Below are positions 3,567 through 18,987 of a DNA stretch of 64,000 bases, in pieces. The notes below the pieces were generated by a model. It was not told where the DNA came from and made no database searches. It worked only from the letters and a program-made list of their open reading frames with translations. Each line of letters opens with the position of its first letter. The first letter of the stretch is position 1. The DNA is taken from NCBI GenBank assembly GCA_001818675.1, contig MHJF01000006.1, positions 3,157-67,156 of the forward strand, written 5' to 3'. This stretch comes from Candidatus Harrisonbacteria bacterium RIFCSPHIGHO2_02_FULL_40_20 (GTDB taxonomy: Bacteria; Patescibacteriota; Minisyncoccia; UBA6257; WO2-44-18). The position numbers were made by a program, and so were the translations under genes.

Positions 3567-4346
3567 ATGTTTTTACTGGTTTTATTACCGGTTTTTTGGG
3601 TTCATCCCACGAATGCCCAATCCGAAGATTTAAAGACCGCTAAAGAAGCGGTTCAGCAAAGCTATGATAAATTAGTGGAAGTTCAGGGCGAGCAGACGTT
3701 AACTAAAGAAGAACAAGCTAAACAAGAGTTAGAAGCTTTAATTGCCGCTTTAAAAGAAGTTGTGCAATTTACCATTACTGAAACTGAAAGTTTAATTCAG
3801 CATTTATCGGCTATTAAGGGATTATCTGTAGAAACCGCCAAATTACAATTAGATTATTTAAAAGAATTAGACGAATTTTTAATTTATCAGCAAGAATTTT
3901 TGATTAAAATAACTCCTCAAGAAGAGGTTGGAGCCTTGACCTTAGTTGAGATTAAACAATTAGCTTTAGATTTTAAAAATTGGAGAGAAACGGTTTATGA
4001 TCCTGAAATTAAAAAGATAGTTAGTTTTATTATGGTATTTAAGGGTTCCGAGCTATTGAGTATAGCGACTAGCCGTTTTAATAAAATTGCTTTGGATTTG
4101 CGGCTATTCCAAAATTCAAAGTTAATTAAAGTAGATCTTTTGATGCCAGTATTACAGCAAGCCGGCGATTATTTGAAAGAGGCATCAAAATTAAATCAAG
4201 TAGCAATAAAATCTTTATTAGCTACTTCCACTGATCCAGTAGATACTAATAAATTAGTGGAGCGGGTGGTTGGGCTTATTAAATCTTCTTACGGCAAATT
4301 TTTAGAGATGAGTTCTTTGGTGAAGAAGATGCTTAATATCCAGTAA
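3567..4346 (+). CDS. secreted coiled-coil protein (start moved from 3510 to 3567)
   Basis: The ORF-track N-terminus lies inside the repeat element; Met at 3567 starts a signal peptide MFLLVLLPVFWVHPTNAQS. Confidence 0.5.
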   Translation: MFLLVLLPVFWVHPTNAQSEDLKTAKEAVQQSYDKLVEVQGEQTLTKEEQAKQELEALIAALKEVVQFTITETESLIQHLSAIKGLSVETAKLQLDYLKELDEFLIYQQEFLIKITPQEEVGALTLVEIKQLALDFKNWRETVYDPEIKKIVSFIMVFKGSELLSIATSRFNKIALDLRLFQNSKLIKVDLLMPVLQQAGDYLKEASKLNQVAIKSLLATSTDPVDTNKLVERVVGLIKSSYGKFLEMSSLVKKMLNIQ

Positions 4347-4838: not shown

Positions 4839-6299
4839 CTACCTGGCGTATTCTACCGCTCTAGTCTCTCTCACCACATTAACTTTAATTTCTCCCGGGT
4901 ATTTCATTTCGGTTTGAATTTTATGGGCGATATCTTTGGCTAATTGAAACGCGCCAAAGTCATCAATTTTTTCTGGCACTACGAAGACTCGGATTTCCCG
5001 GCCGGCGGATAAGGCATAGACGGTTTTTACGCCCGCAAAGCCAGAGGCGATTTTTTCCAATTCTTCCAAGCGTTTCAGATAGTTTTCTACGGTATCGCGC
5101 CGGGCGCCGGGACGGGCGGCGGAGATAATATCTGCGGCGGCTACGACAAAAGATTCTGGGGTGGCGAAAGGATATTCTTCATGATGAGCCTCCATAGCCT
5201 GGACTACCTCATCTTTAATGCCATATTTTTGAAGTATTTTTCGCCCCAGTTCCACATGGGTTCCTTCCACTTCATGGCTGATGGCTTTTCCGATATCGTG
5301 CAATAAAGCGCCCTTTTTCGCTGTTTCCACGTTCATTTTTAGTTCTGCGGCGATAATGCCGGAAATGTGGGCCATTTCCACGGAGTGCACTAAAACGTTC
5401 TGGCCATAGCTGGTTCGGAAATGCAGTTTGCCTAAAAGCTGGAGCAGTTCTTTTGGCAAATCAATAATTCCTACTTCTAAAGCGGATTGTTCACCAATTT
5501 CTATCATCCGTTTGTTAAGTTCTTGGCGGGCTTCCTCTACTTTTTCTTCAATTTTTGCTGGCTGAATTCGGCCGTCTTTAATTAATTTTTCTAATGCCAT
5601 TCGGGCAATTTCGCGTCGAACTGGATCAAAAGAAGAAATTATAATACTTTCCGGCGCCTCATCAATCACCAGCTCAACGCCAGTGGCTTTTTCTAGCGTA
5701 CGGATATTTCTGCCTTCGCGGCCAATAATTTTTCCTTTGATTTCTTCGTTAGGAAGCTGGAAAGAAGTAGTGGTGATATCGGCAACGTGGGATCGAGAAT
5801 AACGTTGGATTGCCCCAGTAATTATTTCCAACGATTTTTTTTCTATTTCTTCTTTTCTATCTTTTTCTAGTTTTTGGATAGTTTTTACGATTTCTTCCTG
5901 ATGACTTTGCTCTAGCATTTTCATAAGTTGCGCTAGGGCATCTTTGGCAGTTAAACCGGCGATTTTTTCAAGATCCGCCATGGTTCTTTTTCGTAATTCG
6001 CTTACTTCAAATTTATCGTTTTCTAAAGTTTTTTCTTCTTTTTCTAAGCGACTTTCTTTAAACCGAATATCGCTGGAATATTTTTCCAGCGTTTCTTCTT
6101 TTTTAATCAGCCGTTCTTCTAGGCGATCTAGCTGACTCTTTTTTTCTTGCCCTTCTTTTTTGGCCTCCTCTAGGAGTTGGGCGGCCTTTTGTTCAAGCGA
6201 TTTAGCTTTTTGGGAGGAGAGTAAGTAGTTTGCGAAGTAGCCTACGGCTAAGCCTAATACAAGAAATCCCCCCGCTGTTAATAGGGTTATTGAGTCCAT
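4839..6299 (-). CDS. rny: ribonuclease Y
   Basis: N-terminal TM helix, coiled coil, KH domain (IIGREGRNIRTLEKATGVELVIDE) and HD domain (LLHDIGKA). Confidence 0.9.
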   Translation of the reverse strand: MDSITLLTAGGFLVLGLAVGYFANYLLSSQKAKSLEQKAAQLLEEAKKEGQEKKSQLDRLEERLIKKEETLEKYSSDIRFKESRLEKEEKTLENDKFEVSELRKRTMADLEKIAGLTAKDALAQLMKMLEQSHQEEIVKTIQKLEKDRKEEIEKKSLEIITGAIQRYSRSHVADITTTSFQLPNEEIKGKIIGREGRNIRTLEKATGVELVIDEAPESIIISSFDPVRREIARMALEKLIKDGRIQPAKIEEKVEEARQELNKRMIEIGEQSALEVGIIDLPKELLQLLGKLHFRTSYGQNVLVHSVEMAHISGIIAAELKMNVETAKKGALLHDIGKAISHEVEGTHVELGRKILQKYGIKDEVVQAMEAHHEEYPFATPESFVVAAADIISAARPGARRDTVENYLKRLEELEKIASGFAGVKTVYALSAGREIRVFVVPEKIDDFGAFQLAKDIAHKIQTEMKYPGEIKVNVVRETRAVEYAR

Positions 6300-6348
6300 A
6301 AACGAAATATTGTTTTATAATTTGCATCGACGTGTTAATTCTACCTTC

Positions 6349-6377
6349 TTGCTTTATTGCTGTCAATTTGTTATAAT
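6349..6377 (+). promoter_or_regulatory. sigma-70-like promoter (TTGCTT, 17 nt spacer, TATAAT)
   Basis: Read directly from the sequence in the rny-murB intergenic region. Confidence 0.5.
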
Positions 6378-6384
6378 CGTTTAT

Positions 6385-6478
6385 AGAGTGAGTGTTAGTA
6401 TTCCTTGACGATGATATCGACCAAGGAATGTCTTAACAAATTGTGGCTAAAAGACCCGCTTCGGCGGGTCTTTTAGTT
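6385..6478 (+). ncRNA. candidate small RNA (about 94 nt) with an internal hairpin and an intrinsic terminator
   Basis: Promoter at 6349-6377; hairpin attccttgacgatgatatcgaccaaggaat; terminator gacccgcttcggcgggtc followed by a T-run; no ORF. Confidence 0.4.
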
Positions 6479-6804
6479 TGCGGCAAAAACCTTTCTGTTT
6501 TAATATTAATTTATTGGATTATCCTGTAGAACTGCTAGTCTGTGTGTTGTGCATTAGGCGCCCTAAGGGGCTGCATAGACGCGCACTCACTTAACACCCC
6601 GCACTAAAAATTGGATTGCCCTTTGGAGTCGCCAGGACGCGCACTCACTTAACACAATTTGTATAAGAGGTCACCACTGGCGATTCCATAGGACAATTCA
6701 ATTGATCCAATTTTAGTGACGGGGCAGGCAATTTTGTATTAGGAGGTCACCACATGCAGCCCCTTAGGTTGCTTAGGTGTTGTTGCTGGCAGTTCCATAG
6801 GGCA

Positions 6805-7767
6805 ATGCAAGATTCTCTTTCTATGTTTCAATCCGAGGTTAATTTAAAGCACCTCAGCAATTATAAAATTGGCGGCGGAGCAGATTATTTTTTTAGCGCC
6901 AAAGATATTCAGAGACTAATCGGGGCTGTAGCCGTAGCTGAAAAAAACAACCTGCCAATTTTTATTTTAGGCGGAGGCACCAATCTGCTTATTAATGATG
7001 GCGGCTTTAAAGGGTTGGTATTAAAACCCGATATTAAAAAATTAGAAATTGAAAAATCGGATAAAGAGCAGGTATTAGTCAGGGTGGGCTCTGGCATTTT
7101 GGTTACGGAATTTTTGAATTTTTTGATTAGCAATTCTTTATCCGGAATGGAGTGGGCTGGAGGTTTGCCGGGTACTGTTGGTGGCGCAATTCGAGGTAAT
7201 GCCGGAGCTTTTACTGGCGAAACTAAGGATGCGGTAGCGGAGGTAGTGAGTTTAGATATTTCCAAGAAGCAGCCTAAAATAATTCGTCGCGATAATAAAG
7301 AATGTAAATTTGGATACCGAAATAGCATATTTAAAATTAATGATGGAAGAGAAATAATTACGGAAGCTGTTTTTTATTTTCAGAGAGGAGATAAACAAGC
7401 GATTAAGAAATTGGTGGAAGAAAAAATCAATTATCGCCGTTCTCGGCATCCTATGGAATATCCGAATATCGGCAGTATTTTTAAAAATGTTGATTTAAGG
7501 TTGATTCCTAAAAATAAACAAAAAAACTTTGCTAATATAGTTAAAAAGGATCCCTTTCCGGTTATTCCTACTGCTTATTTAATTTCTGAAGCTGGATTAA
7601 GGGGTGTGAGTTATGGCGGAGCAATGATTTCTCCTAAGCACCCTAATTTTATAGTGAATGCTTTGGACGCGAATGCCAAAGATGTAAAAACGCTTATCAA
7701 TTTAGTGAAGGCTTCAGTTAAAAGAAAATTTGGAGTAAGTTTAGAAGAGGAAATTATTTATGTGTAG
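6805..7767 (+). CDS. murB: UDP-N-acetylenolpyruvoylglucosamine reductase
   Basis: FAD-binding N-terminus NLKHLSNYKIGGGADYF and MurB C-terminal domain; start placed at MQDSLS (ORF-track start 6754 lies inside a repeated segment). Confidence 0.8.
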   Translation: MQDSLSMFQSEVNLKHLSNYKIGGGADYFFSAKDIQRLIGAVAVAEKNNLPIFILGGGTNLLINDGGFKGLVLKPDIKKLEIEKSDKEQVLVRVGSGILVTEFLNFLISNSLSGMEWAGGLPGTVGGAIRGNAGAFTGETKDAVAEVVSLDISKKQPKIIRRDNKECKFGYRNSIFKINDGREIITEAVFYFQRGDKQAIKKLVEEKINYRRSRHPMEYPNIGSIFKNVDLRLIPKNKQKNFANIVKKDPFPVIPTAYLISEAGLRGVSYGGAMISPKHPNFIVNALDANAKDVKTLINLVKASVKRKFGVSLEEEIIYV

Positions 7768-7874: not shown

Positions 7875-8237
7875 ATGAAAATAAATATAAAATACTCTAA
7901 CTTAGATTCTACGCTGGCGATTGAGGAATATATTAATCAGAAGATTGGCGCGCTGGAAAAATTTGTTGAGGCCTTAGATAAAAAAGGCGCCGTTAAAGCG
8001 CGAGTAGAAATTGCGCGTACCACTAAGCATCATCAAAAAGGCGAGGTTTATCATGCGGAGTGTAACTTAGAATTGCCCGGAAAGTTATTGCGCGCGGAAG
8101 CTGAAAATTGGGATATTCGTTTAGCGATAGATGAAATAAGAGATATTCTGGCTTTAGAAATTAAACAATATAGCGAAAAGTTTCGGCCGCAGGACGGCAG
8201 GGGACAGGAAAAGTTGCGTAACTTGCGTGGGAAATAA
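7875..8237 (+). CDS. hpf: ribosome hibernation-promoting factor / RaiA (short form)
   Basis: MKINIKYSNL...LEEYINQKIGALEKF S30AE-family N-terminus; 120 aa. Confidence 0.75.
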   Translation: MKINIKYSNLDSTLAIEEYINQKIGALEKFVEALDKKGAVKARVEIARTTKHHQKGEVYHAECNLELPGKLLRAEAENWDIRLAIDEIRDILALEIKQYSEKFRPQDGRGQEKLRNLRGK

Positions 8238-8239
8238 AA

Positions 8240-8275
8240 AACCCGCTCCGATGTTCTGGAGCGGGTTGATGATTT
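8240..8275. terminator. bidirectional intrinsic terminator
   Basis: aaaaaacccgctccgatgttctggagcgggtt followed by a T-run; lies between hpf (+) and the convergent paralogue gene (-). Confidence 0.6.
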
Positions 8276-17930: not shown

Positions 17931-18004
17931 TGGTGGACCTAAGGAGAATCGAACTCCTACCTTTTCCATGCCATGGAAACGTAATACCATTTTACTATAG
18001 GCCC
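17931..18004 (-). tRNA. tRNA-Ala (anticodon GGC), CCA encoded
   Basis: Acceptor GGGCCTA/TAGGTCC with G3:U70, anticodon loop ATGGCAT, 3' CCA present. Confidence 0.8.
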
Positions 18005-18101
18005 TAAAACAATTATTGAATAATTGTTCGGGCGATTCACTAGTTGGTGAATTTAGCCCGAGCAGGCAAAATTTGCCCTTGAAAAGGATTATAAAGTAAA
18101 T

Positions 18102-18548
18102 TTATAAAATAACAATCTCGGCTTTTTGAAGCCCGAATTTACGGGCTTGAGCAGTGCTGGCAAACCAAATATCTACGCGATGAAAATAACGCGAAGCCAT
18201 GCGGTCTTCCACAATAAAAATCTTATCGCCATAAAGTTCTGGAATTTTAATTTTAGCTCCAATTTTTAAAAAGTTAGCTGCTACAATACCATCACGAACA
18301 TGAGTTCCCGAAGCTGTAATAAACGGAGTGTTATCAGTTTGATCAGGAGTAGAAGAATAAGCTGTGATATCCACAGTCAATCTAGTAGGTTGATATAATT
18401 GAGGAGCCATAATCAGATTGATTGAGGTAGAATTGATTTGATCCTCAAAAAGCTCTTTTGTAATAGAAATAGGGCCCGAAAAATTAAGGGTTTGAAAAGA
18501 AAACGCTAGAAATAAAGCAAAACTTAAGCTTTTGGTCATAGGTTTCAT
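18102..18548 (-). CDS. 3D-domain (MltA/YuiC-like) cell-wall-associated protein
   Basis: ITAYSSTPDQTDNTPFITASGTHVRDGIVAAN...IFIVEDRMASRYFHRVDIWF; signal peptide; start taken at MKPMTKS. Confidence 0.65.
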   Translation of the reverse strand: MKPMTKSLSFALFLAFSFQTLNFSGPISITKELFEDQINSTSINLIMAPQLYQPTRLTVDITAYSSTPDQTDNTPFITASGTHVRDGIVAANFLKIGAKIKIPELYGDKIFIVEDRMASRYFHRVDIWFASTAQARKFGLQKAEIVIL

Positions 18549-18644
18549 AATGCTTTTTATCACTGGAGGTAACAAAAAATGCCCTTTCAGGCAGTAGTGT
18601 TTGTACTCTTCAGTTTGGATATATACTAGCAAATGGCAACCGAT

Positions 18645-18673
18645 TTGTCAAGTGCCTTAAAATCTGGTATAAT
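18645..18673 (+). promoter_or_regulatory. sigma-70-like promoter (TTGTCA, 17 nt spacer, TATAAT) for the tRNA cluster
   Basis: Consensus-like boxes about 30 nt upstream of tRNA-Arg(CCT). Confidence 0.55.
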
Positions 18674-18704
18674 ATTGGCTATAATTAGCCAGAGAGCAAC
18701 AAAT

Positions 18705-18776
18705 GCCCTCGTAATTCAATGGACAGAATAGCTCCGTCCTAAGGAGAAAATGACTGTTCGATTCAGTCCGAGGGCA
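18705..18776 (+). tRNA. tRNA-Arg (anticodon CCT)
   Basis: Acceptor GCCCTCG/CGAGGGC, anticodon loop GTCCTAA, T-loop TTCGATT. Confidence 0.75.
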
Positions 18777-18778
18777 AA

Positions 18779-18832
18779 GGCTAAATCTGCCAGCTGGCGG
18801 ATCGCCCGATTGCCAATAGCGGTTTAGGGAGG
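18779..18832 (+). promoter_or_regulatory. partial copy of the recurrent ggctaaatc...ccagctggcgg...gtttagggagg motif in the tRNA-Arg/tRNA-Ser spacer
   Basis: First 32 nt match the motif upstream of 40929 and 55413; 3' end overlaps the 5' end of tRNA-Ser. Confidence 0.5.
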
Positions 18833-18914
18833 GTTGGCAGAGTGGTTTAACGCGCCGCACTCGAAATGCGGTTGGGGAGAAATCCCCTCGGAGGTTCGAA
18901 TCCTCCACCCTCCG
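18828..18914 (+). tRNA. tRNA-Ser (anticodon CGA)
   Basis: Long variable arm; anticodon loop CTCGAAA; acceptor GGAGGGT/ACCCTCC. Confidence 0.8.
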
Positions 18915-18916
18915 TT

Positions 18917-18987
18917 GGGCCTATAGTTCAGTGGCAGAACGCCTCGTTTGCAACGAGGAGGCGCCAGTTCAATTCTGGCTAGGTCCA
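18917..18987 (+). tRNA. tRNA-Ala (anticodon TGC)
   Basis: Acceptor GGGCCTA/TAGGTCC with G3:U70, anticodon loop TTTGCAA. Confidence 0.8.

Follow-up and report, generated by a model that had tools for sequence, protein, structure and literature searches.

The intergenic region between rny and murB very likely harbors a genuine small RNA gene, whose product of about 95 nt (hereafter sRNA-A) has not been described before and belongs to a group of uncultured Parcubacteria. The explanation that we regard as likely, on the basis of sequence comparison, is that sRNA-A is a dedicated base-pairing RNA, independently transcribed and non-coding, which recognizes a partner RNA (RNA-B) in trans through two seeds; each of the two RNAs is probably transcribed independently. 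Conservation, structure and intermolecular covariation are supported by computation; transcription, the direction of regulation and the link to murB are what we infer. Unless a relative's locus is named, coordinates are positions in the window, i.e. the whole 64,000-nt stretch of contig MHJF01000006.1 (Candidatus Harrisonbacteria, an uncultured CPR bacterium whose only genomes are metagenome assemblies) that was analyzed.

The probable sRNA-A gene and its conservation

The features of the sRNA-A locus are the following:

4839-6299, minus strand: rny (RNase Y), divergent neighbor of sRNA-A
6338-6366, minus strand: rny promoter-like site, TTGACA, 17 nt, TAGAAT (11/12 matches in the consensus scan)
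6349-6377, plus strand: putative sRNA-A promoter, -35 TTGCTT (6349-6354), 17-nt spacer, -10 TATAAT (6372-6377)
6383-6479, plus strand: predicted sRNA-A transcript, about 95 nt, with a putative start at 6383-6385 and a 3' end in the T-run at 6471-6479
6386-6394, plus strand: seed 1 (s1), GAGUGAGUG, at the 5' end of sRNA-A, complementary to segment t1 of RNA-B
6395-6436, plus strand: variable hairpin domain (core hairpin 6400-6429), whose sequence varies while its structure is kept
6437-6445, plus strand: seed 2 (s2), CAAAUUGUG, directly before the terminator, complementary to segment t2 of RNA-B
6447-6479, plus strand: intrinsic terminator, perfect 13-bp arms (6447-6459/6464-6476) followed by TTTTAGTTT

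The promoter proposed in the earlier note (TTGCTT, 17 nt, TATAAT) is present at 6349-6377, and its -10 box is preceded by TGt at 6369-6371, which makes it an extended -10 (TGtTATAAT, 6369-6377). Its -35 box is weak, matching TTGACA at 3/6 positions, which is why the plus-strand promoter was not listed by the consensus scan; in most orthologues the -35 box is TTGACT. All 15 orthologues examined retain this sigma-70-type -35/17-nt/-10 arrangement, in most cases with an extended -10, and in all 15 it sits at a fixed distance from the conserved RNA 5' end, AGAGUGAGUG. The neighbors named in the same note, divergent rny and murB, are likewise as described, and Candidatus Harrisonbacteria RIFCSPLOWO2_02_FULL_41_13b, a metagenome-assembled genome of the Parcubacteria/CPR, encodes an RNase Y 100% identical to the window protein. 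The sRNA-A promoter and the strong minus-strand rny promoter (6366-6338) are arranged back-to-back in the window. In 9 of the 15 orthologues the two -35 boxes lie in an inverted repeat, TTGAC..GTCAA, whose halves are 7-9 nt apart; a shared regulator could bind there. One genome, L086 (4990-5960, identical to L167), carries three small GC-richer ORFs between rny and sRNA-A, each with its own GGAGG site and with no assigned function.

A 99-nt model of the sRNA-A transcript folds at -39.5 kcal/mol (z = -6.3 versus 200 shuffles). The hairpin that had been reported is found at 6400-6429 (attccttgac...accaaggaat); the corresponding middle region in the relatives carries GNRA or tri-nucleotide apical loops, with an extra hairpin in L002, L162 and L163. 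The intrinsic terminator with its T-run was also correctly recognized (within 6447-6479), the T-run TTTTAGTTT being interrupted, and a U-rich tail lies 3' of the terminator in every sRNA-A orthologue. As the terminator is symmetric, it could work in both directions.

Loci with RNase Y relatives were gathered from GTDB genomes, JGI metagenomes and exact-protein look-ups, and labelled L001 and so on. A covariance model of sRNA-A (R1) built from the first six orthologues scores the window copy at 82 bits and matches sRNA-A in L001-L005, L081, L086, L091, L161-L163, L165, L166 and L168 (32-109 bits); the copies of L180 and L181 were recognized by eye rather than by R1. With the window counted, 17 distinct contigs carry a conserved sRNA-A, and in each of them it is encoded divergently from rny. 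These contigs represent a narrow clade, whose RNase Y proteins share at least 63% identity with the window protein. sRNA-A is absent from about 145 more distant Parcubacteria loci, and it was not seen in the short upstream DNA of the relatives L164 and L182. Within the clade, the hairpin and terminator covary: on a model-fitted alignment, which leans towards the model structure, 91.5% of the cells pair and 16 of 23 pairs are compensatory (both sides changed). None of 500 shuffles reaches the observed pairing, and slid controls give 36-53%. For the terminator alone (helix 3), 98.5% of the cells are paired and 6/9 pairs are compensatory. The hairpin, whose conservation in related genomes had been suggested as a check, is thus kept, with covariation, in related contigs.

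That the region holds no ORF was not strictly accurate, since a 21-codon ATG ORF spans 6411-6476; the substance of the claim stands, as this ORF has no Shine-Dalgarno sequence and is not conserved. It is full-length in the window and its close relative L161 only, and truncated in L086; L002 and L162 contain unrelated ORFs, and the other 10 orthologues have either no ORF or one of at most 4 codons. We therefore rejected the possibility that the unit encodes a small protein. The Rfam search proposed in the earlier note returned no family at gathering threshold for sRNA-A. Indeed, with Rfam 15 nothing in 6250-6850 rose above a gathering threshold on either strand, only the tRNAs of the window passing; the best sub-threshold matches in this interval were rsmX (25.1 versus 56 bits) and istR (20.7 versus 45 bits). 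The window contains 12 tRNA genes (1240-60589, including a cluster at 17934-18987), and no rRNA, RNase P, SRP or tmRNA gene was found in its 64 kb. The conserved promoter, covarying stems, conserved single-stranded segments and lack of a conserved ORF together support the proposal of an independent small RNA with its own promoter and terminator.

RNA-B, a second conserved hairpin beside murB

The 345 nt that separate the sRNA-A terminator from murB fold into a very long hairpin (6513-6810; MFE -127 kcal/mol, z = -6.1), within which lies RNA-B:

6478-6506, plus strand: weak candidate promoter for an RNA-B/murB transcript, TTGCGG, 17 nt, TAATAT, proposed from the sequence alone
6513-6810, plus strand: composite long hairpin with three nested RNA-B-like layers, from inverted repeats and folding (outermost 6513-6538/6786-6810; middle 6555-6576/6754-6775; P-stem 6597-6609/6711-6723; inner 6611-6703)
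6611-6703, plus strand: inner, complete copy of RNA-B, with a 23-bp covarying stem and a 43-nt conserved loop (6635-6677)
6642-6650, plus strand: t1, CACUCACUU, the RNA-B loop segment matched by seed 1; it is repeated in the middle layer (6584-6592)
6653-6661, plus strand: t2, CACAAUUUG, target of seed 2 in the RNA-B loop; AA separates t1 from t2
6667-6677, plus strand: invariant Shine-Dalgarno-like motif GAGGUCACCAC in the RNA-B loop; second copy at 6743-6753
6823-7767, plus strand: murB (UDP-N-acetylenolpyruvoylglucosamine reductase), conserved N-terminus MFQSEVNLK from 6823

The RNA-B core recurs beside the murB start in L001-L005, L086, L091, L162, L165-L168 and L180, and a covariance model of it (R2) scores the window copy at 91.6 bits. 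Its stem of about 23 bp shows compensatory changes in 18 of 31 predicted pairs, and its 42-43-nt loop is nearly invariant (GGACGCGCACUCACUyAACACAAwUUGUAUUGGAGGUCACCAC). Within the rny-murB synteny, R2 detects RNA-B exclusively in contigs that also carry sRNA-A, and murB adjoins rny only in contigs with both RNAs. The rny-hup pair and the murB-hpf pair are each syntenic across the clade. In the window, a symmetric, bidirectional-looking terminator (AACCCGCTCC...GGAGCGGGTT, 8240-8267) lies 3' of the hpf/raiA-like gene (7875-8237), itself downstream of murB.

Directly 3' of t1 and t2, the RNA-B loop carries the invariant Shine-Dalgarno-like sequence GGAGGUCACCAC, and the surrounding GAGGUCACCAC is identical in 8/8 aligned RNA-B sequences. 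The codon located 6 nt downstream of the loop GGAGG varies (AUG, ACG, AUA, UGG, UUA, UUG), so that translation from this GGAGG is not conserved; a leader peptide, or an N-terminally extended MurB, starting there was accordingly rejected as a general feature. A type I toxin-antitoxin system was rejected too, since this codon varies and the downstream ORFs are absent or unrelated. The longest murB ORF of the window opens at ATG 6754, directly 3' of the middle-layer GGAGGUCACCAC and in the same frame as ATG 6823, where the conserved MurB N-terminus begins; the 23-codon extension (6754-6822), which overlaps RNA stems, is probably not translated. A similar in-frame GTG extension is seen in L004. 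Most genomes lack a clear Shine-Dalgarno sequence in front of murB in either RNA-B orientation, a good one being found in L168 and L091. The sequence GGACGCG...CACCA led us to consider a tRNA-like RNA or a (permuted) tmRNA: ARAGORN found none in 6200-6900, and no tmRNA model matched.

The layers of the composite hairpin are related to one another. The outermost stem is a paralogue of the inner RNA-B stem; the middle layer retains t1 and GGAGGUCACCAC, and its loop is broken after ...UUAACAC by the P-stem bearing the complete inner copy. A homologous P-stem-plus-copy module occurs in L004, at a different position in its outer loop. Self-insertion and palindrome-driven duplication are both possible origins of the nested copies; an insertion guided by sRNA-A is unsupported, as the insertion points differ between the window and L004. 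An additional partial copy of the 5' half of the loop (GGACGCGUACUCAC) is present in L002 (3633-3646), about 85 nt upstream of the complete RNA-B. In L008, a run of 100 N (3729-3828) extends from a few bases inside the sRNA-A orthologue to a point within murB; it is probably an assembly gap, and the palindromic RNA-B region may have broken the assembly. A scan of viral contigs with the RNA-B loop pattern gave 10 chance matches, supported by neither covariance model.

The orientation of RNA-B turned out to be variable. RNA-B is always located on the 5' side of murB and, in the window and seven other genomes, points towards it with no terminator between, the hairpin ending 10-20 nt before the murB start (about 15 nt in the window, where RNA-B is the murB 5' leader). 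In four genomes it points away: there it is inverted relative to murB, free-standing, and ends at its own terminator (L005, 6693-6783; L165, 2683-2775; L166, 1484-1574; L168, 1417-1507). In L165, RNA-B is convergent on sRNA-A and the two use the same bidirectional terminator. In most genomes RNA-B is preceded, in its own orientation and at a distance of 10-35 nt, by a -10-like box that often reads TGTATAAT (L002 and L004 being outside this re-examination). Since the close relatives L003 and L005 differ in RNA-B orientation, the rearrangement has recurred. It is not the work of a phase-variable inverton acting through the arms of the RNA-B stem, a candidate we rejected: the flanks, promoter and terminator also differ between L003 and L005, showing that the whole RNA-B gene was rearranged rather than the loop flipped.

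This variability bears on the reading in which all of 6384-6822 is a single cis-acting murB leader, the terminator being an attenuator and s1:t1 and s2:t2 intramolecular long-range contacts. Such a leader would agree with the window, L001, L002, L086, L091, L162 and L180, where sRNA-A, RNA-B and murB follow one another on one strand with no terminator after RNA-B. Against it, unrelated genes follow sRNA-A in L003, L005, L081 and L163 (hup or other non-murB genes, small ORFs among them), RNA-B is encoded on the other strand in L165, L166 and L168 and has its own -10 box in most genomes, and the stretch between the seeds differs among genomes in both sequence and length and shows no aptamer-like core. 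Because the genes downstream of sRNA-A differ between genomes, sRNA-A is not simply a murB leader; unlike a cis leader, riboswitch or attenuator, it does not always lie in the murB 5' UTR on the same strand. The alternative raised in the earlier note, namely that the region is the 5' leader of a longer murB mRNA, fails on the same four loci with other genes downstream and on the three in which RNA-B lies on the other strand. Furthermore, 13 genomes have a complete RNA-B and 4 of them have it outside the murB transcript, so that purely cis control of murB cannot be general. Gene order in the relatives thus excludes a purely cis leader, and we hold the single-leader reading as a whole to be very unlikely.

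Intermolecular covariation and its interpretation

The two unpaired segments of sRNA-A match the RNA-B loop. In the consensus, the sRNA-A 5' end faces t1 (CACUCACUy), and the pre-terminator 9-mer CAAwUUGUG faces t2 (CACAAwUUG). To assess the pairing, we aligned the four segments of 10 distinct genomes without gaps. For s1:t1 and s2:t2 together, 89% of the cells pair and 8/20 pairs are changed on both sides; none of 500 shuffles equals the observed intermolecular pairing on any of five measures, and slid controls give 24-55%. Helix 1 (s1:t1) consists of 9 pairs, with 93% of the cells paired and both sides changed in 5 pairs. The matched segments are as follows:

L002: sRNA-A GAGUGAGUA, RNA-B UACUCACUC
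L168: sRNA-A AUUGAGUG, RNA-B CACUCAAU
L086 and L165: sRNA-A GAGAGUG, RNA-B CACUCUC
L091: sRNA-A UGUGAGUG, RNA-B CACUCACA
window, L162, L002 and L166: sRNA-A CAAAUUGUG, RNA-B CACAAUUUG
most other genomes: sRNA-A CAAUUUGUG, RNA-B CACAAAUUG
L180: sRNA-A UUACUUGUG, RNA-B CACAAGUAG

Compensation takes the form of G:C to A:U in L002, G:C to U:A in L168, A:U to U:A in L091 and U:A to A:U in L086 and L165. In seed 2, an AAAUU/AAUUU swap is matched in RNA-B in the window, L162, L002 and L166, and two double changes in L180 are matched as well. Uncompensated changes are a U.C mismatch in helix 1 of L003 and L005 and a U.U in L166, and the independent compensatory events are few, roughly 8-10. The duplex energies follow the same trend: cognate sRNA-A/RNA-B combinations reach -26.7 kcal/mol versus -22.6 kcal/mol for non-cognate ones, an advantage equaled in 0 of 100,000 permutations (p < 1e-5), and shuffled seeds give -14.9 +/- 0.9 kcal/mol. 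From these comparisons it is very likely that sRNA-A has co-evolved to base-pair with the RNA-B loop, and the two unpaired segments of sRNA-A are conserved because they pair with this partner. An additional pairing, between GUGG..GACC of sRNA-A and GGUCACCAC of the loop, was discarded because it is not conserved.

Pairing must act in trans, given that RNA-B is inverted and free-standing in four relatives. The two RNA genes occupy different strands in L165, L166 and L168, where each is equipped with a -10 box and a terminator of its own; about 5 kb separates them in L003, and about 3 kb in L005, where RNA-B is divergent from murB. As in trans-acting sRNAs, the seed is unpaired and subject to compensatory changes, and the partner is in a different transcript. 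The complementarity could in principle reside in DNA, the same two protein-binding boxes (GAGTGAGTG and CAAWTTGTG) being present at both loci and co-evolving with a DNA-binding protein. Matching double-stranded motifs at two loci would also resemble complementarity, and the segments are near the promoters of rny, murB and both RNA genes. This is nonetheless highly improbable: the boxes would be spaced by at least 42 nt at one locus versus 1-2 nt at the other, with their order swapped; several of the one-sided changes are G.U-compatible (5 core wobble cells plus 1 flanking, versus 2 internal mismatches), which fits RNA pairing; and each region is part of a unit that has, besides a promoter and a terminator, covarying RNA stems.

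The two helices occur in permuted order, with the 5' seed on the 5' target segment, and the gap between t1 and t2 is 1-2 nt, so that simultaneous pairing requires an unusual geometry. The two helices could form alternately instead of together. The permuted order also brings the sRNA-A 5' end up against the 3' end of seed 2, at the t1/t2 junction. This abutment, on a continuous 20-nt template, is what would favor a stable, non-regulatory heterodimeric RNA, for example a particle binding the ribosome or the anti-Shine-Dalgarno sequence, or a splint that places the sRNA 5' end beside the nucleotide following seed 2 for processing or ligation; the co-evolution of the pair as a dedicated unit would agree with it, as would the otherwise unexplained invariance of GGAGGUCACCAC. 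The reasoning is purely topological, the conserved associated protein genes are housekeeping neighbors only and the distribution is narrow, and we find this heterodimer scarcely probable.

In the mechanism that we favor, sRNA-A would run from its extended -10 promoter, back-to-back with the rny promoter, to the intrinsic terminator, and its function would reside in the two unpaired segments (GAGUGAGUG and CAAAUUGUG), separated by the hairpin whose structure is conserved and whose sequence varies. Both segments would pair in trans with t1 and t2 in the apical loop of RNA-B, directly 5' of GGAGGUCACCAC. Most likely, sRNA-A is a dedicated riboregulator that would remodel this loop, for example if seed 1 displaced a weak CUC:GAG contact between t1 and GGAGG that would mask the GGAGG motif; the contact is predicted by folding and, being invariant, is neither supported nor refuted by covariation. 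Such remodeling could change the activity of RNA-B and, where the bound RNA-B is the murB leader, as in the window, it could alter ribosome access, nuclease processing or translation of murB.

Alternatively, RNA-B might be a sponge or decoy that titrates sRNA-A, whose real targets would be mRNAs elsewhere, or sRNA-A might antagonize an RNA-B that acts through GGAGGUCACCAC. In L005, L165, L166 and L168, RNA-B indeed stands alone as a gene, equipped with its own promoter and terminator, and the part of RNA-B that is most conserved, GAGGUCACCAC, is not involved in the pairing with sRNA-A, which suggests that RNA-B has a function of its own. Yet the seeds change freely when RNA-B co-changes, which is unexpected if many mRNAs relied on the same seeds, and no second site matching both seeds was found within the 64-kb window. 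We judge this reading unlikely; it is a variant of the main explanation and inseparable from it on the present comparisons. A sponge of the CsrA/RsmX type was rejected, GGA motifs being absent from the loops.

A further idea, which strikes us as doubtful, is that sRNA-A and RNA-B, instead of being an ordinary sRNA-mRNA pair, form a dedicated, co-evolving two-RNA device of the CPR, in which the loop would be a 20-nt clamp or splint that holds the 5' end and the pre-terminator segment of sRNA-A in permuted order and so switches the exposure of the invariant, anti-SD-complementary GGAGGUCACCAC, and in which RNA-B would appear able to re-insert into its own loop (as the nested copies of the window and L004 suggest). 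If true, it would be a new class of RNA-RNA module, possibly ribosome-directed or self-propagating.

Novelty and comparison with known systems

To our knowledge, riboregulation in the Candidate Phyla Radiation is almost unexplored, and our literature search found no description of sRNA-A or RNA-B, singly or as a pair, or of a comparable CPR sRNA-target pair. A base-pairing sRNA with a dedicated partner is a known kind of element; the novelty lies in the RNA family, in the lineage that hosts it and in the pairing of two seeds, in permuted order, with an apical loop. Here, an sRNA was matched to its partner from sequence alone, through intermolecular covariation, and the pair is located between the gene for RNase Y and a peptidoglycan-synthesis gene. 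Two RNAs of about 95 nt are concrete, synthesizable objects for in vitro or heterologous tests of CPR gene regulation, and they raise a specific question about the invariant Shine-Dalgarno-like motif of the loop.

RsmX (RF02144), the best sub-threshold Rfam match, is likewise a small RNA ending in a CCCGCUUCGGCGGG terminator. Unlike RsmX, sRNA-A has no GGA motifs in its loops, and the match (25.1 bits versus a gathering threshold of 56) aligns essentially the terminator only. The topology of the pairing, and only the topology, recalls the EBS1/EBS2-IBS1/IBS2 contacts of group II introns, in which two adjacent targets are recognized by two separated guides in the same 5'-to-3' order, in a non-nested manner. 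By contrast with these elements, there is here no intron, no reverse transcriptase, no ribozyme domain and no sign of a DNA or RNA insertion reaction, and the RNAs are about 95 nt each.

Antitoxins of the IstR-1/tisB type offer a closer parallel: the sRNA is encoded beside its target without being antisense to it, has one dedicated partner and pairs with a structured leader upstream of a ribosome-binding site. Unlike in IstR-1/tisB, RNA-B is not followed by a toxin-like ORF, and where RNA-B is a free-standing gene a terminator closes it; the sub-threshold match to istR (RF01400; 20.7 versus a gathering threshold of 45) rests on the terminator hairpin. As in OxyS-fhlA and SroC-GcvB, two short helices, each of less than one helical turn, form with a partner region in a loop and, as in the sRNA-sponge pair SroC-GcvB, the partner is itself a small non-coding RNA in some genomes. 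The difference is that the targets are contiguous here in one 42-43-nt apical loop, and that the helices are permuted.

Finally, in its overall architecture sRNA-A resembles RybB and OmrA/B of enterobacteria and RoxS of Firmicutes, being about 100 nt long and transcribed, by prediction, from a promoter of its own, with an unpaired seed right at the 5' terminus, a structured central part and an intrinsic terminator; it also shares with them short (9-bp), imperfect pairing to the 5' region of the target near a Shine-Dalgarno-like sequence. It differs from these sRNAs, to which it has no sequence or Rfam relation, in that it carries a second seed directly before the terminator and has a partner that is apparently single, dedicated and co-evolving.
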